This document shows, one piece after another, positions 4,167 to 34,734 of a stretch of DNA of 57,020 nt; within the stretch, counting starts at the first letter, position 1, and each line of letters begins with the position of its first letter. The translations under genes and the position numbers were made by a program. The DNA is taken from the sequence record SRR20825019_2329; one strand, 5' to 3'. Under the pieces are notes generated by a model. The model was not told the DNA's origin, made no database searches, and was given only the letters and a program-made list of their open reading frames with translations.

Positions 4167-4184
4167 CCTCTGCTCAGTGTGACT

Positions 4185-5884: not shown

Positions 5885-5886
5885 GT

Positions 5887-8618: not shown

Positions 8619-8622
8619 GTGT

Positions 8623-9675: not shown

Positions 9676-10649
9676 AGATGAGTTTCGAGAAGGTATCCTT
9701 CCCCCTGAAGGCTCCTTTTGTGATTACCGGTTATACGTTCAATACGACTGATACGGTTCGCGTAACCCTTGAGGCTGATGGCGTTAAGGGGCACGGTGAG
9801 GGTGTCGGTGTTTATTATTTGAACGATACTGCCGACGTGATGTTGGAGCAACTGGCTGAGATAGCACCCAGGGTTGAGGCAGGGCTTGCTCACGACCAAG
9901 TGCAACAAATGCTACCTCCTGGCGGCGCCAGAAACGCACTTGATTGCGCGCTCTGGGATCTGGAATCCAAGCGATCCGGCATCAGCGTATGGGAAAGTCT
10001 CAAGATGACACCCAAAACGCTAAAAACCGTTTGCACGGTGGGGATCGGTTCAGCCGAACTAATGGCCGAAACCGCAGCTAGCTACGCCAAGTACCCTCAT
10101 CTCAAGATCAAGCTGGATGGTGATAATCCGATCGCTAAGCTTGAGGCCATTCGCGAAAAGCGCCCGGATGCAACCCTCATCATTGACGTTAACCAGGGTT
10201 GGACGTTTGAAGAGCTGAAAGAATATGCTCCAGCTTGCGAGAAGTTAGGCATTGCCATGATCGAACAGCCGCTGAAACGCGGCGGGGATGCAGCCCTTGA
10301 GGGCTACAAGTCACCTGTGCCGCTTGGCGGTGACGAAAGTTGCCTTGACGCCAGTGAATATGAGATTGCCGCAAGTCGTTATGACGTCATTAACATTAAG
10401 CTGGATAAATGCGGCGGGCTTACGGCGGGGCTTTTGCTCGCCAACCTCGCGCTGCGTGACGGCAAGGCACTGATGGTCGGGAACATGACGGGCTCGTCGC
10501 TTTCCATGGCACCTGCCTATGTTATCGGCCAGTTCTGTCATTTTGTTGATATCGACGGCCCGCTCCTGTTGGCGGACGACGTGGACAATGGCTTGTTTTA
10601 CGGCACCGGCGGGATCGTGGAGGTCCCGAACCGTGCGCTTTGGGGATAA
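9672..10649 (+). CDS. dgcA: Enolase-superfamily epimerase, N-acetyl-D-Glu racemase DgcA / L-Ala-D/L-Glu epimerase
   Basis: KIK, DVNQGW, EQP, DES, NIKLDKCGG and DIDG motifs; ATGA overlap with dgcN. Confidence 0.85.
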   Translation: MKMSFEKVSFPLKAPFVITGYTFNTTDTVRVTLEADGVKGHGEGVGVYYLNDTADVMLEQLAEIAPRVEAGLAHDQVQQMLPPGGARNALDCALWDLESKRSGISVWESLKMTPKTLKTVCTVGIGSAELMAETAASYAKYPHLKIKLDGDNPIAKLEAIREKRPDATLIIDVNQGWTFEELKEYAPACEKLGIAMIEQPLKRGGDAALEGYKSPVPLGGDESCLDASEYEIAASRYDVINIKLDKCGGLTAGLLLANLALRDGKALMVGNMTGSSLSMAPAYVIGQFCHFVDIDGPLLLADDVDNGLFYGTGGIVEVPNRALWG

Positions 10650-10704
10650 CGGTGAACAAACGGGGTGAGGCGAATATCTTACCAAAATCGTGGGAGTGAG
10701 GAAA

Positions 10705-12633: not shown

Positions 12634-12657
12634 GCGACAAGGAAAGGAACAGAGGCA

Positions 12658-13830
12658 ATGACACAGTCAAAATTTAATCGTCGATCCTTCCTGCGCGGGG
12701 TAGGCGTGGCTGGGGCCGCAGCGGTGGCCATGCCCATGATCAACATGGGCAGCTTCCAGGTGTTTGCAGGCGACGAGACCAAATACAGCGGGCGAGCCAT
12801 TGATGTGGTGAATTCGGTGCAGGTGTTCGACATGCTGTCGATCCTCTCCCCTTTCAAACATATGATGACGTCTGCGTTCAGTAAAAACCCGATGCTTTCA
12901 GATGCGTTTGAATTGCAGCGGGACGAGCTTGATGTTCTCTTGGCTTCTGGCGTGGATGTTTTTCATCCAGCCGTCGGGCTAGGCGGTGACGAGGCTGCGG
13001 GTTTCATTGCCCGCATGAATGCTTATGCTGCTGAGTATCCCGAACACCTTCAACGCATTGACAGCCTTGAAGATATCAAGACTCTGAAAAAGGGTGAGCG
13101 TATCGGGTATATTTTGGGTATCCAGAACTCTGACCATTTCCGCAGCGTTGATGACGTAAACCAGTTCTATTACATGGGGCAGCGTATCAGCCAGTTGACG
13201 TATAATAGCCAGAACCTCATTGGCTCAGGTTCAACCGATAGGGTCGACGGCGGCATCAGCGACTTCGGTGCGGCCGTTGTCGCGCGCATGAACGAACTTG
13301 GCATGGCAGTGGACGTTTCCCACTGCGGTGACCAAACCACGCTGGATGCGTTTGAGCTATCAAAAAAACCGGTACTTATCACCCATTCCAACGTGCGAGC
13401 ATTGGCGGAAGGCCATGTGCGTTGCAAGTCGGACGATGCTATCAAAGCAATGGGTAAAGCCGGCAGCGTGATGGGCATTACGGGGGTTAGAAACTTCCTC
13501 TCCGCCAAGGAACCAACCACTATCGAGACGCTTGTCGATCATGTCGATTATATCGCGAAACTGGTGGGTATTGAGCATGTGGGAGTAGGTTCGGACATGG
13601 ATATGAACGGCTATGACGACATCCCTGAGCCCGCCTATAGCGCACTCAAGGCCGGGTATAAATCCAGCTACGGTTTCCGCGACAAGATTGATGCAGACGG
13701 TTTTGATCATCCAAAACGTATCTTCGATTTGGCAGAAAGCATGATTGCGCGCGGTTACACGGACGATCATATCCGGCTTGTGCTTGGTGATAACTTCAAG
13801 CGGGTGCTGGGCGACATCTGGGTCGCTTAA
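12658..13830 (+). CDS. Tat-exported membrane dipeptidase (peptidase M19) family protein
   Basis: NRRSFLR Tat motif; QLTYN, DVSH, THSN, GSD. Confidence 0.85.
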   Translation: MTQSKFNRRSFLRGVGVAGAAAVAMPMINMGSFQVFAGDETKYSGRAIDVVNSVQVFDMLSILSPFKHMMTSAFSKNPMLSDAFELQRDELDVLLASGVDVFHPAVGLGGDEAAGFIARMNAYAAEYPEHLQRIDSLEDIKTLKKGERIGYILGIQNSDHFRSVDDVNQFYYMGQRISQLTYNSQNLIGSGSTDRVDGGISDFGAAVVARMNELGMAVDVSHCGDQTTLDAFELSKKPVLITHSNVRALAEGHVRCKSDDAIKAMGKAGSVMGITGVRNFLSAKEPTTIETLVDHVDYIAKLVGIEHVGVGSDMDMNGYDDIPEPAYSALKAGYKSSYGFRDKIDADGFDHPKRIFDLAESMIARGYTDDHIRLVLGDNFKRVLGDIWVA

Positions 13831-13832
13831 AC

Positions 13833-15410
13833 ATGAGGGCCGAGGGCGATATGACGGGACCATTTGAAATCTTGGTGTTTGGCATCCTGCTTGTCGCCCT
13901 TGTGCTTAGCTTTCTGCCAAAGAAACACTTCGCCCGCGCGGCCTTCATTGCTTCGGGTATTGCGTTTGCGGGTTTCGTTGCGGTTTCCACATTCGGTACA
14001 CCACGTGGGCCGCTTGTGCCTGGCGCGCTTCTGGCACTTATTCTGGCTTTCGTGACTTTCTGCCGGCTTGAATACCCTAAACCAAACAATTGGCGGCGAC
14101 GCAGTGTGTTTGGTGTCTATATAGCGCTCTCAAGCGCCTTGGCGGTTATTGCCATTATATTGCCGATCGGCTTTCCGGTTTTTGAGCCGCCTGCGCCGGC
14201 GGGGCCTTACGCAGTTGGCTATGCCCGGTCGGTTATCCCAGATGACAGCAGACTTGAAGCCGCGACGGAAGACGCAGGCGATCACCGCGAACTGCCGGTT
14301 CAAGTATGGTATCCGGCGAAGGTGCCTGAGGGTGAGGAAGCGCTGCCTTTCATTCCAGACAGCGAGCAAGCCGCACACCTGATGGGAGACAACCTTGGTC
14401 TGCCGCTTGGTTTTTTTGACTATCTTGAGGATATAAGAGGGTACAGCTATCAGAATGCGCTGGTTGCTGCGCATGGTAGCCGCTTCCCTGTATTGGTTTT
14501 CAGCCATGGTTTCGGTTCAATTGGCGCGCAAAACACCCTGCTGATGGAACATCTGGCAAGCTTTGGCTATGTGGTTTTCTCGCTTGAGCACCCCTTTCAG
14601 GCGGCTTGGGTGCGCTTGGGTGACGAGCGCACGGCGACCTTTGATCCGAAGGGCTTCCGCGATGTGGAGATGCCCGAGGGGGAGACCGAGGGTCTTATCG
14701 ATACAATCGTGCAGATGGCTGATGCGGAAGACTACAATAGTTACCTTGGCCATGTTTCTGATCTTATCAACAATCAGGCGAGTTTTATTACCGGGCTCAG
14801 ACTATGGACCGACGACACGGTGTTCTTTCTCGACCAGTTGCAGGCAGGGGAGATTCCGGAATTTTCTAGTCTTTATCGCTCCATGGATATGGACAGACTT
14901 GGCATTTTTGGCATGTCTTACGGAGGTGCTGCAGCAGGCATGGTGTGCCTGACCGATACACGATGTAAAGCGGGCATTAATATGGACGGCTTGCAGTTCG
15001 GCGAACACGATATGACATTTCCGATCAGCCGTCCCTTCATGATCATGAATTCAGATGCAAACCTATTCAAAGACCCGGATGACCGCCACGGGCCAGCTAA
15101 ATTCAAGACGAATGATTTTGTATATCGACAGGCAGTGGGGCCAATTTACAGCCTAACCGTTGGTGGTGCACACCACATGAACTACAGCGATTTTGCCCAT
15201 CTGATGCCATTAGCCAAACAGTTTGGAATGTTTGGACCGGTGTCTTCGGATGCCATGAATCGCATCATGAACGACTATGTGAAGGGTTTCTTTGATCGCC
15301 ACCTTAAAGGTGAGGCCGCGCCGATCCTTGACGGCGCGTCCTTAGAACACCCTGATGTACTGGAATTCGTCCACCGGAACGTGGATGAGGGGACACTTGT
15401 CAGCGAGTGA
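13833..15410 (+). CDS. Membrane-anchored alpha/beta hydrolase (PAF-acetylhydrolase-like)
   Basis: N-terminal TM segments; GPYAVG, VQVWYP, FSHG, GMSYGG nucleophile elbow, NMDG, AHHMNYSD. Confidence 0.8.
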   Translation: MRAEGDMTGPFEILVFGILLVALVLSFLPKKHFARAAFIASGIAFAGFVAVSTFGTPRGPLVPGALLALILAFVTFCRLEYPKPNNWRRRSVFGVYIALSSALAVIAIILPIGFPVFEPPAPAGPYAVGYARSVIPDDSRLEAATEDAGDHRELPVQVWYPAKVPEGEEALPFIPDSEQAAHLMGDNLGLPLGFFDYLEDIRGYSYQNALVAAHGSRFPVLVFSHGFGSIGAQNTLLMEHLASFGYVVFSLEHPFQAAWVRLGDERTATFDPKGFRDVEMPEGETEGLIDTIVQMADAEDYNSYLGHVSDLINNQASFITGLRLWTDDTVFFLDQLQAGEIPEFSSLYRSMDMDRLGIFGMSYGGAAAGMVCLTDTRCKAGINMDGLQFGEHDMTFPISRPFMIMNSDANLFKDPDDRHGPAKFKTNDFVYRQAVGPIYSLTVGGAHHMNYSDFAHLMPLAKQFGMFGPVSSDAMNRIMNDYVKGFFDRHLKGEAAPILDGASLEHPDVLEFVHRNVDEGTLVSE

Positions 15411-15432
15411 CAACTGAAGGAGGGAGAGAATA

Positions 15433-17340
15433 ATGTTTAGGAATAGGGGACAATGGGGCTTGGGCAGGCTGGCGGCAACGCTGGGGCTTTCTATGCTTCT
15501 GGGGCTTGGAGCCCAGGCGGGTACACCAGACCTTGATGACGAAGAAGAGGTTGAGGCTTTTGTCGACGGGGTTGTTAAGCCTTTGATGCAGAAGGAGCAT
15601 AGCCCGTCTGGCATTGTTGCCGTGATGAAGGATGACAAAATCATCTTCCAGAAGGGTTATGGCTATATCGACGTTGAAAAACGCATCCCGGTGGATGCCG
15701 AAACCAGCATGTTCCGCCCGGGCTCAATTTCGAAACTGTTTACATGGGTGTCTGTTATGCAGCTTGCCGAACAGGGCAAACTGGATATCGACACGGACGT
15801 GAACGAATATGTCACTCAGTTCAAGATCGAAGATACTTTCCCTGGCAAGCCGATTACACTCAGGCACATCCTGACCCATACACCGGGTTTTGAAGACGGC
15901 GCGCTCGGATATCTGATCATCAACGATGTTGACCGGATCATGCCCCTCGCAGAGGCGCTGGAGAAGTACCAGCCTGAGCGTGTGGTGGAGCCGGGCACAC
16001 GTGTTGCCTACTCTAACTGGGCAACGGCCCTGGCGGGCCTGATCGTGGCCAATGTATCAGGCGAAGATTTCAACACCTATGTTGATAACCATATCTTCAA
16101 GCCGTTGGGCATGACCCATTCCACTTTTAGGGAGCCGCTTCCCGCTGAGCTGGAGCCTTTTATGGCGAAGGCCTATACCTATGGAGCTGGCAAATACAAG
16201 GAAACACCGTACGAGATCATTACCAATTTTGGCCCGGCTGGTGCGGCTGCGGTATCGGCGCCTGACATGGCGAAGTTTGCTCGTGCTCTTCTGAACGGCG
16301 GCGAGTATGACGGTGTGCGCATCCTCAAAGAGGAGACGCTCAATCAGATGCTTAATGAGGGCTTTTCCCATGACCCACGCGCGCGTGGTACCGGGCTTGG
16401 TTTCCTGAAGCGTGATTTTGGCGGACCCGAGTTCGAGAATTTCGGTCATGACGGTGGCACTACCATCTTTATCTCACATTTCGGACTTTCAATCCCGAAT
16501 GATTTTATGCTGTTCTCTAGCTTCTCCGGCCCAGGTGCGGGGCCTGTGCATCAGGCGTTTGTGGAAAACTTCTATGACGAGTTTTTCCCGCAAGATCTTC
16601 CTTATATTGAACCGTCGGCTGATTTCCAGTCACGCGGCCAGAAATATGCCGGTACTTATGTATCTTCTCGCAACAGCCACACCAAAGTGGAAAGCATCCT
16701 GCGTGGTCTCGGTAGTGTGAATGTGGCGGTGATGCCAGACAACACGCTGATGATTGGCGAAACACGCTACGTTGAAGTGGGCGACAATGTCTTCCGTCAA
16801 GTGGATGATAACGATCAGGTGATCTTCCAGGAAAACGAAGCAGGTGAAATCACCGGTTATGTGCTCGACGGTATGGGTGTGATGCAGTTTTACCCAGCCA
16901 AATTTTATGAAACCAAGGGCTACATCAGCACGGTGCTTGGTCTTTCGCTTCTGGTCTTTGTCGGGGTGTTTGTGCGCCTTGCTTTGCAGTGGGCACGTTT
17001 CCGCGCTTGTGAGGGGCAGGCCAAGAATGCCTACCGCGCGACCCTTGTGGTGGCGGGTGCGAACATACTCTTCTTTGTCTTTATCGGCATTACGCTGATG
17101 GGCGGTATGCAGCAGTTGTTCTACTCAATACCCGGCACACTCAAGTTCGCTTTTGTGTTCCCCATCGTGGCACTTCTGGCGACGCTCTATCACCTCTACA
17201 CAACATTCCTTGTGTGGCGGGATGGTCTTTTTGAAGGGGTTTGGCCGCGTATACGCCACTCCCTTTTGGCGTTTTTTGCCGTGCTGATGATTACCTTCTA
17301 CCACACGTGGAATTTTATCGGCTTCAACTATTTCGCCTAG
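15433..17340 (+). CDS. Serine hydrolase (beta-lactamase/D-peptidase fold), paralogue of 10705-12633
   Basis: FRPGSISK, LTHTPG, YSN, HDG; C-terminal TM segments. Confidence 0.88.
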   Translation: MFRNRGQWGLGRLAATLGLSMLLGLGAQAGTPDLDDEEEVEAFVDGVVKPLMQKEHSPSGIVAVMKDDKIIFQKGYGYIDVEKRIPVDAETSMFRPGSISKLFTWVSVMQLAEQGKLDIDTDVNEYVTQFKIEDTFPGKPITLRHILTHTPGFEDGALGYLIINDVDRIMPLAEALEKYQPERVVEPGTRVAYSNWATALAGLIVANVSGEDFNTYVDNHIFKPLGMTHSTFREPLPAELEPFMAKAYTYGAGKYKETPYEIITNFGPAGAAAVSAPDMAKFARALLNGGEYDGVRILKEETLNQMLNEGFSHDPRARGTGLGFLKRDFGGPEFENFGHDGGTTIFISHFGLSIPNDFMLFSSFSGPGAGPVHQAFVENFYDEFFPQDLPYIEPSADFQSRGQKYAGTYVSSRNSHTKVESILRGLGSVNVAVMPDNTLMIGETRYVEVGDNVFRQVDDNDQVIFQENEAGEITGYVLDGMGVMQFYPAKFYETKGYISTVLGLSLLVFVGVFVRLALQWARFRACEGQAKNAYRATLVVAGANILFFVFIGITLMGGMQQLFYSIPGTLKFAFVFPIVALLATLYHLYTTFLVWRDGLFEGVWPRIRHSLLAFFAVLMITFYHTWNFIGFNYFA

Positions 17341-23312: not shown

Positions 23313-24401
23313 ATGTCAGAGAAAAAATGGAAGAAAACTTGTCTGGGTGCTGTTCTGCTGATCGGGATTCATGCGGTTGTGGTTGGTGCGAATGACAGGG
23401 CGGCCGTGATAACAGAAGCCGGTACTGTCTCCATTCCTCGCTTTAGTCTTCCCATGTCGTCATATGCCAGTGACGCCGCAGGGCCCATGCTGCGCGGTAT
23501 CCTGACCGGCCCGCAAATGGGGATAACGGAAAAAATCGCAAACCTCAGGGCTCATTATGATGCCATCAATACGGCGCGGGCTGAGCGCATGAAAGATATG
23601 TACCCCGTCACAATTGAGCAAGACCAAATAGCTGGTGTTCGTATCCAAACTGTTGAGCCTGCGGGCGGGCCTGCGCGCGAGCATCAGGGTAAGGTGCTTA
23701 TAAACCTCCATGGTGGGGCCTTCATGTGGGGCGCTGGCAGTGGCGAGCTGGTTGAAGCGATCCCGATTGCAGCACAATCAGGGATGCGGGTTATCACTGT
23801 TGATTACAGAATGGCGCCCGAACATGTCTATCCTGCGGCATCGGAAGACGTGTTTGCTGTCTATAATGCGCTGTTGGCGGATTATGAACCGAAAAACATC
23901 GGCATTTACGGTTGTTCAGCGGGTGGTATTCTCACCGCTCAAGTGACGGCCTGGATTATTGAACACGGTGCCCGCACGCCGGGTGCGATTGGTACCTTCT
24001 GTGGCACAGGCGTTGACTATGCTGGCGATAGCAGCCAACTCGACCCTGTGTTTAATGGAGGAACGCCAGTTTCAGAGGGTGGCACAGCACTCACCATGAC
24101 CCGTATTCCCTATTTTTCGAAAGGCTCGGAGGGCAGCAAGGGAGTAGCGCCAGGGGAATTTCCTGATCTCCTGGAAAAATTCCCACCAACGCTTCTACTT
24201 GCCGGTAGCCGTGACTTTGCAGCAAGTTCCCTCACGGTGATGCACAGGCGGTTGGCAGCTGTTGGCGTGCCGTCACAGCTCTATTTATTTGACGGGCTGT
24301 GGCACGCGTTTTTCATGGATGCGGAACTCTCTGAATCGCAGGAAGCCTATCGGCTTATTGCAAGCTTCTTTACCGAAAACCTAGGTAAATCCGAACGCTA
24401 A
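23313..24401 (+). CDS. Exported alpha/beta hydrolase, hormone-sensitive lipase (family IV) esterase
   Basis: HGGAF oxyanion motif, DYRMAPEH, GCSAGG, GLWH. Confidence 0.88.
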   Translation: MSEKKWKKTCLGAVLLIGIHAVVVGANDRAAVITEAGTVSIPRFSLPMSSYASDAAGPMLRGILTGPQMGITEKIANLRAHYDAINTARAERMKDMYPVTIEQDQIAGVRIQTVEPAGGPAREHQGKVLINLHGGAFMWGAGSGELVEAIPIAAQSGMRVITVDYRMAPEHVYPAASEDVFAVYNALLADYEPKNIGIYGCSAGGILTAQVTAWIIEHGARTPGAIGTFCGTGVDYAGDSSQLDPVFNGGTPVSEGGTALTMTRIPYFSKGSEGSKGVAPGEFPDLLEKFPPTLLLAGSRDFAASSLTVMHRRLAAVGVPSQLYLFDGLWHAFFMDAELSESQEAYRLIASFFTENLGKSER

Positions 24402-24409
24402 AAGCGGTG

Positions 24410-24883
24410 TCAGGATTTCTCGATTTCACCGATATCCAAAATGGGCGAGGCGTCGAGATCCTCTGCGTCCATCATGGTGGAAATGCGTTGCAGCGCGCTC
24501 ACGAGCATCGTGCGCTCCCATTCTTCAAGCTGCCTGTATTGGCGCAAGAAACCCGCTTGCAGTAGCTCTGGTGCTTCTTCAAGCCGCTTTTGCCCCTCTG
24601 TCGTCAGGCATGCATAAACAATACGTTTATCGGTCTCACTGCGTTCGCGGCGAACAAGGTCTGCCTTTTCCAGCCTGTCGAGGATTGAGGTGATTGTGGC
24701 TTGGCTAAGCGCGACCGTGCGCGCCACCGAGCTTGGGGAGACTTTGCCATCTCGCCTGAGTGCCTGCATTACCACAAGCTGGGGCGCTGTTAGCCCGGAC
24801 ATTTTAACAAGGCGTTTTGACTGAAGGTCAATCGCGCGCATGATGCGGCGAATTGAGATCAGGATATCGTCATAATCGTTCAT
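24410..24883 (-). CDS. MarR-family regulator, EctR/CosR-like
   Basis: ILISIRRIMRAIDLQSKRL..GLTAPQL, SQATITSILDRLE, DKR, DASPIL; start could also be 24919. Confidence 0.88.
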   Translation of the reverse strand: MNDYDDILISIRRIMRAIDLQSKRLVKMSGLTAPQLVVMQALRRDGKVSPSSVARTVALSQATITSILDRLEKADLVRRERSETDKRIVYACLTTEGQKRLEEAPELLQAGFLRQYRQLEEWERTMLVSALQRISTMMDAEDLDASPILDIGEIEKS

Positions 24884-24947
24884 TGCTTGCTGACCTAGAG
24901 GTGGCTGGTCAGTTTGCATTAACGGTAAAACCATGGGGTGGCAATCC

Positions 24948-26186
24948 TTAAGACTTGTCTGTTGCCAGCTCAACAACACAGTCGAGCAGCAAATTGGTGC
25001 CTTGTTCAATGTCTCCCCAGTGCGTGAGCTCATCAGGAGCGTGGCTTACGCCGCCCACACTGGGCACAAAAATGAGGCCGGTTTTGGTGATGTTGCTGAA
25101 GAACTGAACATCATGACCGGCGCCGGAAGGCATGCGCATATAGCTATAGCCACGGTCGATCGTTTTCTGCTCTATCAGGTCTACAACTTCCTTGTCGCAA
25201 TACTGCGGTTCCAGCCAGCTCATTTGGTCATATTCAAACATCAGCCGGTGCCGCCGCGCGATGGTCGACAACACCCTGCGGCAGGCATTTGCCAGGCCCT
25301 TCATGATTTCAGGGTCGAGATCACGCCCAACAATGGTGAAGTCAACTTCGCCGGGCACTGTATGCGGAAAGCCCGGTTTGAGCGCCACATGCCCAATGGT
25401 AATGCGAGACTTATCCGTGCCTTCCTCGTCAATAATGCGTTGAATTTGGTGCGCGAAGTCGGCAAGCCCTAAAAAAGCGTCTGAGCGCATATTCATAGGC
25501 GCAGTGCCTGCGTGGTCAGCTTTACCAATCAGGCGCACGATCCATTTGAAGACGCCGGAGATGCCCTCAACAACGCCGATGGATTTTTTCTCTACCTCCA
25601 GTACGGGGCCCTGTTCGACGTGAATTTCAAGGAAGGCTTTCAGACTTTCAGGCGCTCGTCTGGCGTGCAGGACATCATGGTGGTTAAGGCCATGTTTTGC
25701 CATCGCGTCCTTCAGCATAATACCATTTTCGTCTTTGGCTTTTTCAAGCCAGTCAAGCGTGACACTGCCGGTTAGTGCCTGCGCCCCGAGCATGCCGCCG
25801 AAGCGGCCTTCCTCTTCGCTTGTGCCGACAATCTCAACCGGATAATCGAGCTTGATGCTATTCTCCTTGATAGTGCGAACACATTCAACACCAGCGATCA
25901 CGCCGAGCGTGCCGTCATAAATCCCACCAGCGGGGACAGAATCAAGGTGTGAGCCGATCATCACCGCAGGACGGTCCATTTCTCCGTATCGGCCGATGAC
26001 ATTACCGGCGCCATCCATGCGCGCGCTCATGCCCTCTTGCTCGAGTAGGTTGATTAGCCATTTCCGCGCCGCCATGTCAGCATCGGTGAAGCCTTGCCGA
26101 TACACACCCTTATCTTCTTCGTTAAATCCGAACTTCGAAAGTTCAAAAAGATCGTGTTCAATTCGTTTTATTGACACATTGACCAT
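24948..26186 (-). CDS. M20-family Zn amidohydrolase (N-carbamoyl-L-amino-acid/allantoate amidohydrolase type)
   Basis: GSHLDSV, EEEGRF, EIHVEQG, HAGT, GAGHD, SH; AAGGA RBS before ATG 26186. Confidence 0.92.
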   Translation of the reverse strand: MVNVSIKRIEHDLFELSKFGFNEEDKGVYRQGFTDADMAARKWLINLLEQEGMSARMDGAGNVIGRYGEMDRPAVMIGSHLDSVPAGGIYDGTLGVIAGVECVRTIKENSIKLDYPVEIVGTSEEEGRFGGMLGAQALTGSVTLDWLEKAKDENGIMLKDAMAKHGLNHHDVLHARRAPESLKAFLEIHVEQGPVLEVEKKSIGVVEGISGVFKWIVRLIGKADHAGTAPMNMRSDAFLGLADFAHQIQRIIDEEGTDKSRITIGHVALKPGFPHTVPGEVDFTIVGRDLDPEIMKGLANACRRVLSTIARRHRLMFEYDQMSWLEPQYCDKEVVDLIEQKTIDRGYSYMRMPSGAGHDVQFFSNITKTGLIFVPSVGGVSHAPDELTHWGDIEQGTNLLLDCVVELATDKS

Positions 26187-26428
26187 GTAGTGTTCCTTTG
26201 CTTTCGGCTCCTCGCGCATGGACCATAACGCGAAGGTGTGGTGAAGAACAAATGATTTGAATTCAAAATAATATTACAGTAAGTTGCCCATCGGCCGAGG
26301 CAGTGATTTGACAAAAATATAGGAAAAGGGTCGGGATAATCCGCGCTACAGCCCCATACCATTTAGTTTTAGCCGTAATAATATTATCATTTTTCGGAAC
26401 GCATCGCCCTGCATCCGCCGATGATCTT

Positions 26429-26797
26429 GTGCTTGCAGATAACGGGTTGTCTGCGGGTTATGCCACACTTGCGTGGCCAGGTGCCGCCGGCAGTTCATTT
26501 GTGCTGGAACAAAAGACAAGCGACGGCTGGCGTGAGGTCTATAAGGGCGCAGACCGTGCTTCTACCTTAAGCGGTTTAGCTGACGGCACATATCTATTTC
26601 GCCTAAAGGTTGAAAATGTGCCAGCTCCTCAGTTGCTTGAAATCACAGTGGAGCATCATCCGCTTGCCCGTGCGTGGACATTTTTTGCAATCGGTGCGGT
26701 CATGTTTGTTGTGCTCATAGGCCTGCTCATGAAGGGGCAAGGGCATGAGTACCGCCATTCTTTAGATAAGATATCCTCAGACAACGTGGAGCAATGA
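26429..26797 (+). CDS. Small exported protein, fibronectin-III-like beta-sandwich plus C-terminal TM anchor
   Basis: W...YKG...LSGLADGTYLFRL pattern; hydrophobic C-terminus; frame open upstream to 26312 with a signal-like segment. Confidence 0.65.
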   Translation: MLADNGLSAGYATLAWPGAAGSSFVLEQKTSDGWREVYKGADRASTLSGLADGTYLFRLKVENVPAPQLLEITVEHHPLARAWTFFAIGAVMFVVLIGLLMKGQGHEYRHSLDKISSDNVEQ

Positions 26798-26800
26798 TCC

Positions 26801-28246
26801 ATGATGAACGCTGATGCAGTTCTGCCAGCTGAAATAGCCTGGCTGATAATCGGTCTCTTTTCCCTATTGTGGGTTTGGCTAGGATGGCGGCTGGGCCGTA
26901 ACAACGATAGCCTGGAAGACTACATGCTCGCGGGCCGTAAGGTTGGTATGGGCTTTGCCGTCGCGACCGCGATGGCGACGTGGGTCACAAGCAATACCAC
27001 GATGACAGCACCACAATTGGCTTACCAACTGGGCATCTGGGGTATGGTTGGCTATTCCCTTGGTGCCGTTGGCCTCATGTTGTTTGCACCACTTGCGCGG
27101 CGTATCCGCGAAATGATGCCGGAAGGATACACAAGCGGTGATTTTATTCGTTTGCGATACGGCAAGACGGCTTGGCGCATATTCCTGCTGATTTCCTTCT
27201 TCTACAGCATCGGCTGGCTAATCAGCCTCGGCATGGCTGGTGGGCTTCTTATTAATGCACTCGCTGGTATCCCTTATGCTTACGGCATGACGGTGATTGT
27301 GGTGATCTGCACGCTCTATACGGTTTTTGGCGGCTTGAAGGCTGTGATCGGGACCGACTTCGTGCAAACTATCCTTATCCTCGTTGGTGTTGTTGCACTT
27401 GCGGTGTTGGTAATTGGCGAGGTTGGCTTTGAAGCAATCCATACGGAACTGAAAGCTGAGCGGCCCGAGCTTCTGAATCTATTGCTGCCTGCGTCTATTA
27501 TGTTCCTGTTCAACAACCTGTTTTTTGGTGTCGGCGAGATATTCCACTCCAACGTCTGGTGGTCTCGCGCTTTTGCTTTTGCGCCAGGGGTCGGTTTTCG
27601 GGCTTACGCGCTTGCGGGTGTTTTTTGGTTGCCAATACCCATTGTGGCTGGGCTGATTGCATTAGCGGCCCCCGCGCTTGGCATTAACGTGCCGTCACCG
27701 GACATGGTGGCGCCATTGGTGGCGGGCAAGCTCTTTGGTCTTGCTGGTGCCATTCTTGTGTTTGTGGTGGTTTTCGCGGCACTTGCGTCAAGCCTGGACA
27801 GCGTGCTTGCCGCAACCTCTGACCTGATTGTCAAAGACATTTACAAAGGTCATATCCGCCCGAATGCCAGCAATGCCGAACTTAGAAAGGCGGCGGTTGC
27901 CATCATTCTGGGCCTTGGTGCCCTGACGTGGGCCATGAGCCTGCCGAAGCTTGCGACACTGGGTTCGCTCTTGCATTTCACCGGCGCGTTTGTTGCCAGC
28001 ACAATCTGGCCGATTACGGTAGGGCTGCTGTTCAAGCGAGGCGGCGGTATGCTTGCCAGTCTGGCAATGGTGCTGGGTACGTTGAGTGGCCTTTATGCCT
28101 ATTTTTCTATTGGATTTTACGTCGCAGCTCTTGTGTCCGCGGCGGTGTCGATGCTCGTGATGCTCTTTGCATTCATGAGTAAGTCCGAATTTGAGTGGGC
28201 CCGCCTCGGCGAGGCTCGCTCTACTACAAATGGAGAACTTCCATGA
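26801..28246 (+). CDS. Sodium:solute symporter (SSS/SLC5; DUR3/PutP-like)
   Basis: DYMLAGR, RLRYG, GGLKAVIGTD, AALASSLDS; about 13 TM. Confidence 0.92.
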   Translation: MMNADAVLPAEIAWLIIGLFSLLWVWLGWRLGRNNDSLEDYMLAGRKVGMGFAVATAMATWVTSNTTMTAPQLAYQLGIWGMVGYSLGAVGLMLFAPLARRIREMMPEGYTSGDFIRLRYGKTAWRIFLLISFFYSIGWLISLGMAGGLLINALAGIPYAYGMTVIVVICTLYTVFGGLKAVIGTDFVQTILILVGVVALAVLVIGEVGFEAIHTELKAERPELLNLLLPASIMFLFNNLFFGVGEIFHSNVWWSRAFAFAPGVGFRAYALAGVFWLPIPIVAGLIALAAPALGINVPSPDMVAPLVAGKLFGLAGAILVFVVVFAALASSLDSVLAATSDLIVKDIYKGHIRPNASNAELRKAAVAIILGLGALTWAMSLPKLATLGSLLHFTGAFVASTIWPITVGLLFKRGGGMLASLAMVLGTLSGLYAYFSIGFYVAALVSAAVSMLVMLFAFMSKSEFEWARLGEARSTTNGELP

Positions 28247-28362
28247 TTTCCGTCGAAGGGCTTGAAGCCCTCGTGGTGCCGGCGCTCATCCTGACCTGCG
28301 TAGCACCTGTTGTTCTGATTTACCTTGTATGGCGTGATGTGAAGGAGAAAACGTTATGGTAG
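28243..28362 (+). CDS. 39-aa single-TM membrane peptide (not in ORF track)
   Basis: MISVEGLEALVVPALILTCVAPVVLIYLVWRDVKEKTLW; GGAG RBS; ATGA overlap with the SSS stop and overlap with the next start. Confidence 0.7.
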   Translation: MISVEGLEALVVPALILTCVAPVVLIYLVWRDVKEKTLW

Positions 28363-29447
28363 GCGCAGAAAAAGCAATCTTTGATGGCGCAGCGACGTTT
28401 GAGCCCGCACGCCCTGACGTGTATGGTGACGCACACCCGAAAGACCTCTTGCGGGCCGTAACGGAAGAGCATGAATTTTTGCAGGCGCTCTCCAATAGCC
28501 ATATCGCGAGCGCTGCACAGTTTGAGCGACCGCTGCTGATGCAGCTGTTTCGTCTCGCGGCCAAGTTCGAGGCAAACCCAGAACGGTTTTCAGTGCCGAT
28601 CAAACCGCTTGCGGGTAAACTGTTGATCAGTGCTTTCTATGAACCTTCCACTCGCACACGGTTGAGTTTTGAAAGCGCCTGGCACCGGTTGGGTGGGGAT
28701 ATCATGTCGATTACCGACCGCTCCACCACTGGTATCGCGAAGGGCGAGAGCCTTTCGGATGTGGCGGAGATGTTCAACAACTACGGCGACTGTGTGGTAC
28801 TTCGTGACAGCCGTGAAGAGTCGGTCATGGAAATGATGGATACACTTCGTATTCCTATCATTAACGCGGGGAATGGGACTGATGAACACCCGACCCAGGC
28901 ACTTGCTGACCTTTATACCATCATGAAGTGGAAACCGGCCCTGATGGTCGAGGAGCCGACTGAGAAAATCAGAATCGGCATTGTGGGTGTGCCAAGACGC
29001 ATGCGTACGGTGCGCAGTTTCCTGACCTTGCTGGCGCGCTTCGCGCCGATGGTTGAGGAAGTGGTGGTTATTCACGATGGCAGCGACGAGGAACTTTACG
29101 GGCCGGGTCAGCGTGATGGGCTTATGCGGGAAGGGCTCAATATTCGTGAAAGCATGACGCTTAACGATGAGCTGCCAGAGCTAGACGTTGTTTATATCAA
29201 TGCGATTGCCTGGGTCGAAGATAGCTTCGAGGTCATGGGTAAGACGCTCAAATTGGATGCGAACTCACCGCTCAAACCTTCAGCCATTGTGCTGCACCCT
29301 CTGGCGCGCGGTGAAGAGTTGTGTCGGTCGCTCGATAGCACACCTCACAACTGGTATTTCGCTCAGGCACGTGGGGCCGTGTTCATGCGTATGGCGCTTC
29401 TAACCTGCATGGTTCAGCGCACCGAGATGGTGATGGATATCGTCTAA
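28356..29447 (+). CDS. Aspartate/ornithine carbamoyltransferase-family enzyme, atypical acceptor site
   Basis: FYEPSTRTRLSF, KGESL, NAGNG..EHPTQ, HPL; the ATCase RxQxER loop is replaced by NAIAW. Confidence 0.88.
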   Translation: MVGAEKAIFDGAATFEPARPDVYGDAHPKDLLRAVTEEHEFLQALSNSHIASAAQFERPLLMQLFRLAAKFEANPERFSVPIKPLAGKLLISAFYEPSTRTRLSFESAWHRLGGDIMSITDRSTTGIAKGESLSDVAEMFNNYGDCVVLRDSREESVMEMMDTLRIPIINAGNGTDEHPTQALADLYTIMKWKPALMVEEPTEKIRIGIVGVPRRMRTVRSFLTLLARFAPMVEEVVVIHDGSDEELYGPGQRDGLMREGLNIRESMTLNDELPELDVVYINAIAWVEDSFEVMGKTLKLDANSPLKPSAIVLHPLARGEELCRSLDSTPHNWYFAQARGAVFMRMALLTCMVQRTEMVMDIV

Positions 29448-29528
29448 GAATTGCGGATAGGCGCCGATTTGAATACCCGAGACATTCAGCGCCACCCACC
29501 CCTAATCAAGTAGAAAGCAGAGAGTAAT

Positions 29529-31565
29529 ATGTGCGGCATAGCAGGAATTTTTTATCGCGAACGCAACCGTCCCGTTAACCCTCAATTGTTGGCCAATATG
29601 GCTGCGATCCAACATCACAGAGGCCCTGACGGATTTGGGGTAGAGGTGGTGGATGGCGAAGGTGTGGGTTTTTCACACGCCCGCCTCTCGATCATTGATC
29701 TGGATGAAGACCGTGCGCGTCAGCCTTTTCGCAGTGCCGATGGAAAACTACTGCTTGCCCATAACGGCGAGTTCTATGACTACCAACGTATTCGTACTGA
29801 TCTCACCAGTAGGGGAGATCGGTTTCGGACAAAAAGCGATAGCGAGATTATCCTGCACCTGATGCCACGCTTTGGCATGCAGGAAACGCTTCGTCGGCTA
29901 CGGGGTGAATTTGCGTTTGCTTTGTATGATGCGGAAGAAGACGCGCTTCATCTCGTGCGGGACAGGTTTGGTGTCAAGCCGCTCTATTATTATGCGCACG
30001 ATGAAGGTGTGGTGTTTGGTTCTGAAATCAAGGTGGTTATGGCACATCCTGATGTGCCGCGCCGTTTCAATAATGAAGGACTTCTGCACCAGTTGATGCA
30101 GGTGATGGTGCCTGGGACCACGGCTTATGAAGGCATTAATCAGGTTAAGCCCGGCCATGTGGTGACCTTCCGCAGACAGGGGCTTGGCTATCAGATAGAA
30201 GATCGTCCCTACTGGGATTTCGAGTTCCCAGAGGCGGACTTTCACAAGGGCGAAAAAGACGAAGCCGAAAGTATTGAGGCGGTCCGCGAAGGACTTACGG
30301 AGGCAGTGCGCCTGCGCTTGATGGCAGACGTGCCTGTCGGCTGTTACCTTTCTGGCGGTGTTGATAGTTGTTCGATCCTGGGGCTTTCAGCCGCCATGCG
30401 GCAGGGACCGGTAAAAGCCTTTACGATCGGTTTTGCCGACGCGGCATACGATGAAACGCCGATCGCGCAGGAAATGGCTGCTGCGACCGGGGCTGATCAG
30501 GACATTCTGCGCCTCGACGGCAACCAGCTTTACGGGCATTTCGAGAAAACCGTCTGGCACGCTGAGCGCACCATCTATAACACACTGGCTGTTGCGAAAT
30601 ACCTGATGAGCCAACATGTGCGAGATGCTGGCTATAAAGTTGTGGTGACGGGTGAGGGGTCCGATGAACTGTTCGCAGGGTACCCGTCTTTCCGGCGTGA
30701 TCTGTTCCTCCACGGCCTTGAAGATATGGATGCAGCAGAGCGGCAGCGCTGGGAAGCGATGCTGGGTGAAAGCAATAAGCTTGTAAAAGGGGCCATGTTG
30801 TCAGCTGAAGTGCATGACGATATGTACCTGACCGACCGTATTGGGTTTACCCCCAGTTGCCTGCAACCATGGCTCTCATGTGAGGATACAGCGCGTACGA
30901 TCATCAATCAGGACCGTAAGGCCCTGCTTGAAAACTACAAGCCAGGCCTTGCAATTGCTGAGAAGTTAGACCGGACCAAGCTCGACGGTAGGCATCCGCT
31001 GGACCGCGCACAATATGTTTGGTCTAAAACCATGCTTGAAGGACAGATTTTGACTTGGGGCGGTGACCGCGTAGACATGGCTAATTCCATGGAAGCGCGC
31101 CCAGCATTCCTTGATCACCACCTTGCGGAGACGGCCGTTAAAATACCGCCGCTGCACCGGATCAAGGACCGGAAAGAGAAATATGTGCTGAAAGAGGCCA
31201 TGAAGGGGCTGCTGCCGAAAACGCTGTACGAGCGTGAGAAGTTTGCGTTCATGGCACCACCGGCAACCACCAACAAAGATAAATGGTCATCAATGATGGA
31301 GCTCGCGCAGGAGTTTCTTGGTGATAAGGCTATCCTAGATAGTGGCCTTCTTGATCGGTTCGGCGTGCAGCAACTGATTGTTGAAGCCCAAAGCGATGAT
31401 ACATTGAGGGCGCGCAAGGTACAGCTGGATGCCATGATCAACCACATGCTTGGGGTTCAGGTACTGCATAAGAACTTCATTGCCACAGATATCCCGGCAC
31501 TGGCCGCGCAGCGTGCTGAGGACCTGGGGTGGACAGTAAAGGCTGGGGTTAGAACGGCGATTTGA
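29529..31565 (+). CDS. asnB: AsnB-family glutamine-dependent amidotransferase (asparagine synthetase-like)
   Basis: N-terminal MCGIAG (catalytic Cys), HRGPD, HNGE, RDRFGVKPLY, LSGGVDS, GEGSDELF. Confidence 0.92.
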   Translation: MCGIAGIFYRERNRPVNPQLLANMAAIQHHRGPDGFGVEVVDGEGVGFSHARLSIIDLDEDRARQPFRSADGKLLLAHNGEFYDYQRIRTDLTSRGDRFRTKSDSEIILHLMPRFGMQETLRRLRGEFAFALYDAEEDALHLVRDRFGVKPLYYYAHDEGVVFGSEIKVVMAHPDVPRRFNNEGLLHQLMQVMVPGTTAYEGINQVKPGHVVTFRRQGLGYQIEDRPYWDFEFPEADFHKGEKDEAESIEAVREGLTEAVRLRLMADVPVGCYLSGGVDSCSILGLSAAMRQGPVKAFTIGFADAAYDETPIAQEMAAATGADQDILRLDGNQLYGHFEKTVWHAERTIYNTLAVAKYLMSQHVRDAGYKVVVTGEGSDELFAGYPSFRRDLFLHGLEDMDAAERQRWEAMLGESNKLVKGAMLSAEVHDDMYLTDRIGFTPSCLQPWLSCEDTARTIINQDRKALLENYKPGLAIAEKLDRTKLDGRHPLDRAQYVWSKTMLEGQILTWGGDRVDMANSMEARPAFLDHHLAETAVKIPPLHRIKDRKEKYVLKEAMKGLLPKTLYEREKFAFMAPPATTNKDKWSSMMELAQEFLGDKAILDSGLLDRFGVQQLIVEAQSDDTLRARKVQLDAMINHMLGVQVLHKNFIATDIPALAAQRAEDLGWTVKAGVRTAI

Positions 31566-31580: not shown

Positions 31581-31616
31581 AAAAAAAGCAGCGGGCGTTT
31601 CTGGGACACCCGCTGC
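31581..31616 (-). terminator. Rho-independent terminator
   Basis: GCAGCGGG...CCCGCTGC stem; A7 on + gives a U7 tail on -. Confidence 0.75.
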
Positions 31617-31697: not shown

Positions 31698-32594
31698 CTA
31701 GCTCACTGGATTTGAAGCATCATCCTTGTAGACCTCAAAGTCCATTTTCTTGACATCCTCTGTGCGTATAGTGAGCCCGATGCCAAAAATAATGCAGAGC
31801 TGCATGTAAAAGCTCGCGAGCACCGGGTCGAACGTCTCAAGAGCGTATTGGTCGGCGGCCTGAGTGGCCATCATGAAAATGCTGACCCCAATGCTGGAAA
31901 GCACCAGCCCCTTCACGGTCGCTTCGATTTGCTTATTGCGATCCGCCGAGCCCTTGTATGGATCGAGCCTTTTGCCTCTGATAAAGAAGGTTATAATCGC
32001 CATATAGGCAATGTTCATGCCGGTGATAAGGCACGAGGCCGCTATGACTTGGCCAGGATTGCCCGCGCCAAAATCATTCCCGATCAGGAAAAATGCCAGC
32101 CAGAGAAAATACAGAATGACTGCGCTTACCACGTAGCCAGGGGCTATATAGTCGAACAGACGCCGAGGGCTCAGATCAGCCTTGCGAGTGTTGGCGCTAT
32201 AGGTGGCACGCATGTGTTTATATTGCCGCATTTCTGATACGGACATGACGATGAGCGGTATGACCTGCATCATAAAGTAGATCATCACAAATATTTCGTC
32301 GCCACCCTTCGGCGAAGGCCGATAGCCATTAGCCAACATCGCTACGAGGACCCCTGCGCCGATAAGGGCAACGCAGGTGTTATAGACTTTGTATATGCCC
32401 AGTTTGAAACGCGTCACTTCAGGCGTGTTTTGGCCTGACGGGTAGAGCTTTGGATACTCGGCTGGTGGGAAGTTGGTCAGTACATAATTTATGCGTGCTG
32501 CCAGTTTACGGGGATAGTGGATCGAGATCAGATAAATCTGGCTCAGGAAGACGGTGTAAAAAACTATCAGTGTTGCTGTCATTGACTCGGGCAT
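31698..32594 (-). CDS. Hypothetical polytopic membrane protein
   Basis: About 7 hydrophobic segments; GAGG RBS before ATG 32594; downstream of the YtrA-like regulator. Confidence 0.75.
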   Translation of the reverse strand: MPESMTATLIVFYTVFLSQIYLISIHYPRKLAARINYVLTNFPPAEYPKLYPSGQNTPEVTRFKLGIYKVYNTCVALIGAGVLVAMLANGYRPSPKGGDEIFVMIYFMMQVIPLIVMSVSEMRQYKHMRATYSANTRKADLSPRRLFDYIAPGYVVSAVILYFLWLAFFLIGNDFGAGNPGQVIAASCLITGMNIAYMAIITFFIRGKRLDPYKGSADRNKQIEATVKGLVLSSIGVSIFMMATQAADQYALETFDPVLASFYMQLCIIFGIGLTIRTEDVKKMDFEVYKDDASNPVS

Positions 32595-32658
32595 TTTCAA
32601 TGTCCCTCTATTATCTGGTTTAATTGAATTAGATGTAGGGTCAGGCGGTAAGGCTGCA

Positions 32659-33042
32659 TTACCCCCCACCATGGGCTTGCATCGCATGCCCGAAGGCGAT
32701 GCGTATCTCACTGTCGGTGGCTCCTTCGGTCCTGCAGGCTGTAACTGTGGCAGTTATCTGCTCCAGGACCCATGCGCTCATGTCTGTCTTGCTGTTCTCA
32801 AGCGCTGCCGGGTGAATGAATGTGCCTCGATACCCCTTGGTTTGAATGACACTGTCGCGCTCTAGCAGCCTATAGGCTTTGGCGACGGTTTTATTGTTCA
32901 GTTCCAGATCGTTTGCCAGTTGGCGGATTGAGGGCAAGGCGTCGCCGGGTTTAAGATACCCGTCCTTAACCGCATCCTTGATTTGCTCAATCAACTGGGC
33001 AAACAAGGGTTCCGGGCTGTCTATGTCGACCTTGATTTCCAT
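32659..33042 (-). CDS. GntR family, YtrA subfamily regulator
   Basis: 127 aa; PLFAQL, LKPGDALPSIRQLA, TVAKAYRLLE, GTFI. Confidence 0.92.
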   Translation of the reverse strand: MEIKVDIDSPEPLFAQLIEQIKDAVKDGYLKPGDALPSIRQLANDLELNNKTVAKAYRLLERDSVIQTKGYRGTFIHPAALENSKTDMSAWVLEQITATVTACRTEGATDSEIRIAFGHAMQAHGGG

Positions 33043-33219: not shown

Positions 33220-34734
33220 GTGTTTGGGAAATTTTTCAAGAAAAAGAACAAGCCTACCGCACTTGATTATGAGATTGCGGCGCTGGCAGCAGAGTTGGGT
33301 GTGGCATCCAAAGGAAAACCTGTGGCGCCAGGTGTGGCGCGGGACCTATTGAAGTCTCTTATGATGCGGCAGGCTGACCTGCTTGTGCGCACAGAGGAAG
33401 GCCGCGGCGCCGCCGTGCTGTATAAGTTTGCGGCAAGGCTCTCTGGCCAGACGGTGTCCGATGCCTTGGGGCAGGGAGATAAACACTCACTGCTGCAGCG
33501 CGGTTATGCGTTGATGGGCAGCGGACAGTTTGAAGATGCTAAAACGACGCTGGAGGCAGCTGCAGCACGCTACCCGGAGCACCACCGTGTCCACGCGTCA
33601 TTGGCTGCTGTTCTTGAAAGGTTGGAAGGGGAGGGCGCGGCATTAAAGGTGATGCAGGACTTCTACGCCCGCAAGCCGATGAAGTTGAAAGCCGCAGCGC
33701 AGAATCCGTCAAACGCGCCTACGTTGATGTGCCTGTATGGGTATGATGGTACTAGGTACAAACTTGCATCCAACGGGGATGGCAGCTTCCAGAAGTTCCG
33801 CCGGGGCGGGCATTTCATGCTGCGCTACCTTCTGGACAAAGCAAAATTCAATATCCATCATTTTACGGTTTCAAACGGCAACCTAGATACCTACACGGTC
33901 CCAACCCCGTGCGACCTGATTGTCAACACAGTGGCAGACCCGGATGTTGAAATGGCGTCGCTTCGCACCATTCAGGCGTTTATGGATCGTACGCCAAACG
34001 TACCGATCATCAACCGGCCAGACCGGGTGATCGAGACAACACGAGACCGCAATTATGAACGCCTGAATAAGATTGATGGTATTCGGTTCGCGAAAACACA
34101 GCGCTTTACCCGCGAAGGGCGTGATGAGCAATCATTGGCCATCCATGTTGAAGATATGGGCTATAGCTATCCTCTTATCGTGCGCGAAACCGGCACGCAT
34201 ACGGCTGTATCTACTGAGCTCGTGCATGACCGGGATGAGTTGGCCCGGTATTTCAATCAAAGTGAAGGTGATAGTTTCTACGCGATTGAATTTATCGAGA
34301 ACGCGTCAGAAGAAGGGCATTACACCAAAATGCGCTTCTTCTACATCGATGGGGTTATGTATCCGGTCGTGCATCATATTGACGAGGTCTGGAATGTTCA
34401 CGGCAGCAACCGTAAGACCTTTATGGCTTCGCATCCCTGGATGCTGGAGAAAGAACAACAATTCCTCGCTGAACCCAAATCTGTGATTGGTGAAGAGAAC
34501 TATAACCGTTTGCAGGCGCTTCATGAACTCATTGGGCTGGATTTCTTTGGTGTTGATTTCACCTTGCTGGCGGACGGTACGATCCTGATTTTTGAATTGA
34601 ACCCTGCCATGCGGCATAGCTTTACGCACGCCAAGACGTTTTCGTACATGACGATCCCCCTTCAGCGTATCTCAAACGCCTTTGAAGCCATGGTTAGGAA
34701 GCGTGCAGAGCCGACGTTCAAGGGAGGCGACTAA
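33220..34734 (+). CDS. TPR + ATP-grasp-fold protein of unknown function
   Basis: TPR-like helices, then PIINRP..V, YPLIVR..G, EFI, KMRFFYIDG, LDFFGVDF, FELNP. Confidence 0.7.
   Translation: MFGKFFKKKNKPTALDYEIAALAAELGVASKGKPVAPGVARDLLKSLMMRQADLLVRTEEGRGAAVLYKFAARLSGQTVSDALGQGDKHSLLQRGYALMGSGQFEDAKTTLEAAAARYPEHHRVHASLAAVLERLEGEGAALKVMQDFYARKPMKLKAAAQNPSNAPTLMCLYGYDGTRYKLASNGDGSFQKFRRGGHFMLRYLLDKAKFNIHHFTVSNGNLDTYTVPTPCDLIVNTVADPDVEMASLRTIQAFMDRTPNVPIINRPDRVIETTRDRNYERLNKIDGIRFAKTQRFTREGRDEQSLAIHVEDMGYSYPLIVRETGTHTAVSTELVHDRDELARYFNQSEGDSFYAIEFIENASEEGHYTKMRFFYIDGVMYPVVHHIDEVWNVHGSNRKTFMASHPWMLEKEQQFLAEPKSVIGEENYNRLQALHELIGLDFFGVDFTLLADGTILIFELNPAMRHSFTHAKTFSYMTIPLQRISNAFEAMVRKRAEPTFKGGD

Follow-up and report, generated by a model that had tools for sequence, protein, structure and literature searches.

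Organization of the cassette

The DNA considered here is a stretch of 57,020 nucleotides from sequence record SRR20825019_2329 (the window). Between positions 24,410 and 31,565 it carries a cassette of seven genes, whose host is a marine Kordiimonas. The genes form two divergent arms. The minus-strand arm encodes an enzyme of the M20 family and a MarR-family regulator, and the plus-strand arm encodes an FN3-like membrane protein, a symporter of the SSS family, a micro-protein of 39 residues, a carbamoyltransferase and an AsnB-type amidotransferase. A sequence-only reading had described this gene set and layout and had proposed that the cassette makes, salvages and degrades a carbamoylated amino-acid amide as an osmolyte. 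The list of open reading frames (ORFs) and the family scans agree with the description, as all seven genes are found at the places given, with slight corrections to the start sites of the MarR and FN3-like genes. The observation as a whole is therefore confirmed, and the interpretation is partly supported, its class of chemistry being well motivated. The features are as follows.

24410..24934, minus strand: MarR-family regulator (PF01047, 51.4 bits)
24948..26219, minus strand: M20 N-carbamoyl-amino-acid amidohydrolase family enzyme (NF006771, score 514.7)
26256..26267, no strand: 12-bp perfect palindrome TTTGAATTCAAA in the divergent promoter region, candidate operator
26336..26797, plus strand: predicted FN3-like bitopic membrane protein (frame analysis, AlphaFold, Foldseek)
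26801..28246, plus strand: SSS symporter (PF00474, 95.4 bits)
28243..28362, plus strand: 39-residue single-helix micro-protein (overlaps on both sides, conservation)
28356..29447, plus strand: carbamoyltransferase of the "pseudo-ATCase" type (OTCace_N, 137.8 bits; motifs)
29529..31565, plus strand: AsnB-type amidotransferase of 678 residues (TIGR01536, score 433.6)
31588..31616, no strand: GC-rich hairpin with an 11-pair stem, between the convergent AsnB-like gene and orf337

The five genes of the plus-strand arm are tightly packed. The hairpin behind them, whose T-run is located on the minus strand, is likely the end of the operon. A promoter scan returned 3 sigma-70-like sites against 6.3 in shuffled sequence, and none of them lies in the divergent region.

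Conservation of the gene arrangement

Relatives of the cassette transferase amount to 406 matches in 185,579 species genomes, each species being represented by one genome. The locus counts given below refer to the best 80 of these 406. The amidotransferase gene adjoins the transferase gene in all 80 loci, the symporter gene lies directly upstream of the enzymes in 78, and the micro-protein is present in 78 of 80, which are exactly the symporter-bearing loci. Such an arrangement is far beyond chance. For the FN3 protein family, tblastn gives 61 of the 80 loci and ORF clustering 72. Within 8 kb of the enzyme pair, an M20 gene is found in 40 loci and a MarR homologue in 42, the latter in several different arrangements. 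Because several of the loci are short contigs, the misses in these counts are upper bounds.

The M20 enzyme co-occurs with the pair also where the genes are apart. Idiomarinaceae that have no M20 gene near the cassette carry a 60-62% identical copy elsewhere in 4 of 4 genomes. A metagenome-assembled genome of the Chromatiales (L023), unlike the Idiomarinaceae tested, has no M20 copy elsewhere. Its enzyme pair occurs without any transporter and adjoins a two-component system; in one further locus (L022) a symporter was likewise not seen next to the pair (tblastn only). These two loci indicate that the enzymes need no imported substrate. In L023 (4510-7325, minus strand) the pair is preceded by a divergent histidine kinase with a LuxR-type response regulator and there is no MarR gene, so that the same two enzymes would be regulated in another way.

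The titles of the 80 locus records include Idiomarina, Pseudidiomarina, Kangiella and Kordiimonas, genera that we take to be marine or saline, in line with the marine and halophilic occurrence that had been expected. A protein search with the Chromatiales copy gave no Ectothiorhodospira name among the 120 matches listed. ORF clustering in the flanks of the loci found no further tailoring genes conserved beside the cassette. Genes for aconitase, an SDR protein, HPPK, alkaline phosphatase and an ECF sigma factor stand beside it in Idiomarinaceae; these were set aside as lineage synteny and not parts of the system.

The carbamoyltransferase and the amidotransferase

The carbamoyltransferase had been called atypical, and its scores and motifs justify the word. 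With the PyrB model TIGR00670 it reaches 190.2 bits, below the cut-off of 236.95 for aspartate transcarbamoylase (ATCase). The carbamoyl-phosphate motifs STRTR and HPTQ are retained and are invariant in 12 of 12 aligned sequences, as is retained the arginine of RTV(R)S (here RTVRS). HPLP has become HPLA, and the aspartate motif RxQ has become AIA (AIS or AIV in some relatives). Members of the family from alpha- and gammaproteobacteria are 63-82% identical and share long invariant blocks, the identity between alpha- and gammaproteobacterial copies being 63-68%.

Comparison with the PyrB catalytic chain, for which the nearest PDB entry is 6yw9 from Arabidopsis, shows the same fold and the same carbamoyl-phosphate site (E-value to solved ATCases about 1e-43). 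The cassette enzyme differs in lacking both RxQ and HPLP, in its score below the family cut-off and in a 45-residue N-terminal extension. Moreover, no pyrC or pyrI gene neighbours it, and a true pyrB lies elsewhere. All words sampled from the window (100%) recur in the nearest genome (G001), which was used for the paralogue counts. It has three OTCace-family genes, namely the cassette transferase and canonical copies of argF (430.3 bits, cut-off 306) and pyrB (398.8 bits, cut-off 263). The presence of the canonical pyrB and argF elsewhere makes it unlikely that the cassette enzymes yield only carbamoyl-aspartate and asparagine. Public records label the transferase "aspartate carbamoyltransferase".

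The amidotransferase begins with MCGIAG and has the PP-loop SGGVDS. Both the N-terminal cysteine and the PP-loop are thus intact, as its earlier description as AsnB-like implied, and the enzyme should hydrolyse glutamine and adenylate a substrate. It passes TIGR01536 (cut-off 267.1), a broad model which is not proof of an asparagine product. Neither the AsnB model (255, cut-off 499) nor the AsnO model TIGR03104 (299.8, cut-off 570.1) is reached. The nearest PDB entry, 7ylz, is a hydroxyamidotransferase, and public records label the protein "asparagine synthase". Judged by their sequences, the transferase and the amidotransferase are not housekeeping copies.

The long AsnB-type paralogues of G001 number four (L084-L087, 627-678 residues), three of them besides the cassette's. 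One passes the model of the XrtA/PEP-CTERM amidotransferase (867 bits against 817), and none of the four reaches the classical AsnB cut-off.

The symporter, the micro-protein and the FN3-like protein

The symporter passes PF00474, for which the threshold is 22.8. It scores 145 with TIGR00813 (cut-off 184), and its scores with PanF (80 bits), PutP (74 bits) and ActP are all far below the cut-offs of these models. The ATG of the micro-protein gene overlaps the stop codon of the symporter gene as ATGA, and the last 7 nucleotides of the micro-protein gene overlap the ATG of the transferase gene, overlaps by which the micro-protein gene appears translationally coupled on both sides. Its conserved residues are a C-terminal tryptophan (78 of 78), an aspartate at position -8 (78 of 78) and a proline at -18 (77 of 78). 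When the micro-protein was modelled together with the symporter, the complex scored 0.83, against 0.00 for the best of 3 controls. Of 78 solved complexes, 51 reach this mark, as do 2 of 108 mismatched pairs. At least 98% of the contacts recur between runs, and the pLDDT (predicted local distance difference test score) of the partner is 87 or higher. The modelling supports binding of the micro-protein to the symporter as a predicted subunit.

The FN3-like protein had been described as exported. The FN3 fold stands, but the protein would be anchored and not simply exported because it has a C-terminal membrane helix. Its ORF was listed from a GTG at 26429, whereas the frame is open from 26312, and the part upstream of 26429 encodes a signal-peptide-like stretch ending in ASA/DD. 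There is no in-frame ATG, GTG or TTG ahead of this signal peptide (26312-26440). The codon pair ATA-ATC at 26336-26341 follows six bases after AGGAAAAGG, an arrangement common to three close Kordiimonas relatives, and in more distant relatives an ATG occupies the position of the pair. Translation probably starts at ATA 26336 or ATC 26339, that is, at a non-canonical initiation codon behind the strong ribosome-binding word AGGAAAAGG. Pfam gives no match in this protein. Its AlphaFold model (pLDDT 85.1) has 7 strands and a long C-terminal helix, and the best Foldseek matches of the model are FN3 domains (E 1.9e-4, probability 1.00). The protein is thus modelled as bitopic: a signal peptide is followed by an FN3-like domain in the periplasm and, at the C-terminus, by a membrane helix. 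It probably assists the symporter as an accessory subunit. Taken together, the SSS protein, the 39-residue helix and the bitopic FN3 protein look like an undescribed three-part SSS transporter.

The M20 enzyme and the regulator

The score of the M20 enzyme with NF006771 exceeds the cut-off of 399, and that with TIGR01879 is 332.3 (cut-off 204). Its best function-specific model is that of ErtE, an N-carbamyl-L-glutamate amidohydrolase (NF058540), with 351.3, below the cut-off of 520. Among PDB entries, the N-carbamoyl-L-amino acid hydrolase 3n5f is the nearest. Among the amidases of the L-carbamoylase and hydantoinase-carbamoylase kind (3n5f, TIGR01879, ErtE), the enzyme passes the family model and is closest to the solved L-carbamoylases. 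It differs from the hydantoinase-carbamoylase systems in that no hydantoinase gene adjoins it, and in missing the ErtE cut-off.

The ORF of the MarR protein runs to 25033. Its Met34, at 24934, matches the 174-residue ORF of a relative (L001), and this methionine is likely the start. With this start a gap of 13 nucleotides follows the stop codon of the M20 gene on the same strand, and the two genes are probably co-transcribed. The designation "EctR-like" is unsupported: in the family scans only the generic MarR family is matched, no EctR or CosR model appears, and no specific NCBIfam model comes near its cut-off (the best equivalog gives 46 bits, the cut-off being 200).

In the divergent region, the TTTGAA half of TTTGAATTCAAA does not vary among the 9 Kordiimonadales intergenic regions that were aligned, and 8 of these 9 keep the whole palindrome. 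It is a candidate operator. A second, AT-rich palindrome, ATAATATTA (26268 and 26379), was rejected as an operator, being conserved only in the closest relatives; one of its copies lies inside the signal-peptide codons of the FN3-like gene.

Relation to described systems

The cluster had been thought undescribed. This holds for its function, none being assigned in the literature found, but its synteny was published in 2013 (PMC4016543). In that paper Barba, Dutoit, Legrain and Labedan (BMC Syst Biol 7:99; PMC4016543) named the proteins "pseudo-ATCases". Their marine subgroup includes Kangiella, Nitrosococcus, Synechococcus WH8102 and Rhodopirellula. In the marine gene block the pseudo-ATCase gene stands between a Na+ symporter and a putative "asparaginase", a HyuC-like N-carbamoyl-amino-acid amidohydrolase usually adjoins, and the available part of the paper proposes no function for the block (PMC4016543). 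The motifs of the cassette transferase match the corresponding row of Table 1 there (STRT, HPTQ, HPLA, AIA/AIS/SIA). The neighbours match as well, namely the Na+ symporter, the AsnB-type gene (the paper's "asparaginase") and the HyuC-like carbamoylase, and Kangiella, one of the paper's examples, is among the 80 loci. By its motifs and synteny the cassette transferase belongs to the marine pseudo-ATCase subgroup. The micro-protein, the FN3 membrane protein and the MarR regulator are not mentioned in the available part of the paper. The HPLA/AIA row is called "pseudo-ATCase 1" in Table 1 and "Subgroup 3" in the text and Figure 5, an inconsistency of numbering that could mislead citation (PMC4016543).

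The Rhodopirellula baltica gene RB13301 was found in the literature only in this 2013 paper (PMC4016543). The main text of the R. baltica stress transcriptome of Wecker (2009) has no RB133xx, carbamoyl or asparagine-synthase term, and the main text of Dore (2023) on picocyanobacteria has no carbamoyl, symporter or asparagine-synthase term. Literature on the enzymes in connection with Idiomarina, Kangiella or osmolytes gave nothing relevant, and no relevant paper on ErtE was found.

The system closest in logic makes the osmolyte N-acetylglutaminylglutamine amide (NAGGN) with Ngg and the AsnB-type enzyme AsnO (models TIGR03103 and TIGR03104), and a MarR gene neighbours these enzymes. In both systems the alpha-amine would be capped and a carboxylate amidated by an AsnB-type enzyme, giving an uncharged solute derived from glutamine, and in both a MarR gene lies beside the enzymes. 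The cap differs, as the cassette would use a carbamoyl group from a transcarbamoylase, whereas that of NAGGN is an acetyl group from a GNAT enzyme. In the nearest genome no gene comes near the Ngg cut-off, the cassette amidotransferase misses that of AsnO, and the cassette adds a dedicated symporter.

N-carbamoyl-glutamine amide was reportedly described as a solute by Galinski and Oren in 1991, from one purple sulfur bacterium. Reviews list it as a compatible solute without assigning genes in the parts available (PMC7824335, PMC1224877). No paper was found that assigns genes to it, in keeping with the earlier statement that the solute had no assigned gene set.

Proposed pathway

These comparisons lead to the following proposal. 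The pseudo-ATCase would move the carbamoyl group from carbamoyl phosphate to the alpha-amine of an amino acid other than aspartate, most plausibly glutamine or glutamate. The acceptor in this step would have a free alpha-carboxylate and lack a beta-carboxylate, and an N-carbamoyl amino acid would be formed. The AsnB-type enzyme would then adenylate a carboxylate and amidate it with ammonia derived from glutamine. This would yield an N-carbamoyl amino-acid amide, rich in nitrogen and without charge. The three-part Na+ symporter, composed of the SSS protein, the 39-residue helix and the FN3 protein, would recapture the compound, and the M20 enzyme would strip off the carbamoyl cap during breakdown. 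MarR would control the divergent promoters of both arms through TTTGAATTCAAA. Physiologically, the product would most likely serve as a compatible solute of marine or saline bacteria that degrade amino acids.

An N-carbamoyl amino-acid amide is the most likely class of product, and N-carbamoyl-glutamine amide is the best single candidate. Glutamine or glutamate is favoured as the substrate because the only natural compound known to us with a carbamoyl-amide architecture is a glutamine derivative, and because the best function-specific model of the M20 enzyme is that of an N-carbamyl-L-glutamate amidohydrolase, although its cut-off is not reached. The analysis itself shows the identities of the genes, their motifs, the coupling within the operon and the co-occurrence. 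For the joint explanation, in which the cassette makes, re-imports and breaks down a carbamoyl-amide solute that acts as an osmolyte, the chemistry, the substrate, the direction of transport and the role are all inferred, and we adopt it tentatively, with doubt slightly outweighing confidence. In favour of this explanation stand the constant adjacency of the enzyme pair, the symporter in 78 of 80 loci, the two loci with the pair but no transporter, the carbamoyl-phosphate motifs retained alongside the loss of RxQ, the intact glutaminase cysteine and PP-loop, the co-occurring M20 enzyme, the separate pyrB and argF, the modelled complex of micro-protein and symporter, and the osmolyte-gene inventory and Pseudidiomarina report given below.

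Several observations weigh against it. L-carbamoylases need a free carboxylate, and the window was found to hold no amidase by which the carboxylate would be exposed to the M20 enzyme, nor is any other pathway gene found in the flanks. The cassette is patchy, being present in 2 of 5 genomes of the same genus, 3 of 10 of the same family, 6 of 61 of the same order and, in an even draw of 301 genomes from the class, in 2, which indicates that close relatives in the sea can do without it. Nothing was found in print on a product, a substrate or a response to salt for the cassette. The characterised pseudo-ATCase, Rxyl_2847, works catabolically, on allantoate, according to the available part of the report (PMC4016543). 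R. baltica, which Barba et al. list as a pseudo-ATCase carrier (PMC4016543), was found by nuclear magnetic resonance (NMR) to contain sucrose, glutamate, trehalose and mannosylglucosylglycerate at up to 260% artificial sea water, and no carbamoyl solute is reported in the available part of that study (PMC3694870). Lastly, the inventory of osmolyte genes described below covers only four families in five genomes.

Alternative explanations

The same genes might instead let the cell take up a nitrogen-rich ureido compound from outside and assimilate it. After entry through the symporter, the compound would be split with phosphate by the pseudo-ATCase, which would yield carbamoyl phosphate, and a second ureido group would be hydrolysed by the M20 enzyme. 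Such a function would suit the position of the symporter and its two accessory genes at the head of the operon, the linkage of an M20 ureido-hydrolase to the cassette, the patchy, accessory distribution expected of a nutrient trait, and the catabolic action on allantoate reported for Rxyl_2847, the only characterised pseudo-ATCase in the available part of the report (PMC4016543). It leaves no place, however, for an amidotransferase that consumes ATP and glutamine and is coupled to the transferase in 80 of 80 loci. In addition, a carbamate kinase is not among the seven cassette genes or the flanking ORFs scanned, and the pair occurs without a transporter in 2 of the 80 loci. We consider this explanation unlikely. 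Another possibility keeps the carbamoyl-plus-amide chemistry but assigns it to a specialised metabolite with no osmotic function, such as a signal, an antimetabolite or a nitrogen store. The presence of an importer and not an exporter, the lack of further tailoring genes conserved alongside and the marine or saline genera of the carriers make this quite improbable, even though the distribution is patchy and looks horizontally transferred (63-68% identity between alpha and gamma copies; 2 of 301 genomes of the class), control by MarR is typical of accessory pathways, and the NMR of R. baltica showed no such solute in the part of the study available (PMC3694870).

Two further alternatives concern the enzymes themselves. 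In one, the PP-loop domain of the AsnB-type enzyme would activate by adenylation the oxygen of the ureido group that the transferase makes and exchange it for ammonia, forming a guanidino group in the manner in which argininosuccinate synthetase acts with aspartate. Both the synthetase domain of AsnB and argininosuccinate synthetase belong to the PP-loop ATP pyrophosphatases, and the loop is intact in the cassette enzyme. We know of no precedent for guanidino formation in the AsnB family, and the M20 ureido-hydrolase that accompanies the pair speaks for compounds of the pathway that retain a ureido group; the chance of this chemistry is accordingly judged to be small, below that of a non-osmotic metabolite. 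The last alternative is that the genes are ordinary pyrB and asnB paralogues making carbamoyl-aspartate and asparagine. The score above the TIGR01536 cut-off (433.6 against 267.1) and the public annotation of the transferase as an aspartate carbamoyltransferase would agree with it. It is nevertheless very unlikely, the least probable of these alternatives, in view of the transferase score below the ATCase cut-off, the loss of RxQ, the canonical pyrB elsewhere in the nearest genome, the restricted distribution (406 matches in 185,579 species genomes) and the constant coupling of transferase and amidotransferase.

Genes flanking the cassette

The gene adjoining the MarR gene, at 23313-24401 on the plus strand, encodes an esterase of the hormone-sensitive-lipase family, GCSAG subfamily (NF058650, 436 bits against 410), and is found in the same place only in two Kordiimonas relatives (L002 and L003). 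On the other side, the cassette is flanked by orf337 (31698-32711, minus strand), a 337-residue ORF with no Pfam or NCBIfam match, and by a 504-residue TPR protein with faint ATP-grasp-like matches (33220-34734, plus strand). These two are conserved only in the closest relative, L001. Farther away, a same-strand block of ten genes (1869-17340, plus strand) codes for a TonB-dependent receptor, two Amidohydro_3 enzymes, one ORF that matches nothing in Pfam, a DUF1611 protein, an MR/MLE-type epimerase, two beta-lactamase-family proteins, an M19 dipeptidase and a PAF-acetylhydrolase-like protein. From its gene content, the block seems to serve the import and degradation of cell-wall-derived peptides containing D-amino acids.

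Possible role in osmoadaptation

Five carrier genomes were searched for genes of known osmolyte pathways. EctC was found in 1 of the 5 and OtsA in none, and BetA and Ngg exceeded their cut-offs in none; in the nearest genome the best score with the Ngg model (TIGR03103) is 31.7 bits (cut-off 569). The genera carrying the cassette include Pseudidiomarina. For Pseudidiomarina terrestris, with a range of 0.5-17% salts, no ectoine or betaine synthesis genes were detected, and its strategy of osmoadaptation could not be deduced from the genome, according to the available part of the 2024 description (PMC10893183).

It is possible, though on the unlikely side in our estimate, that N-carbamoyl-glutamine amide or a close relative of it is a widespread nitrogen-rich osmolyte of about 400 mostly marine species. 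If this is true, its carriers would include Idiomarina, Pseudidiomarina, Kangiella and Kordiimonas, whose osmoadaptation has so far not been explained from their genomes. The public names "aspartate carbamoyltransferase" and "asparagine synthase" would then have to be corrected. The two-enzyme route would parallel that of NAGGN. Such a solute would explain how halotolerant, protein-degrading marine bacteria that lack the genes for ectoine, betaine and trehalose cope with salt.

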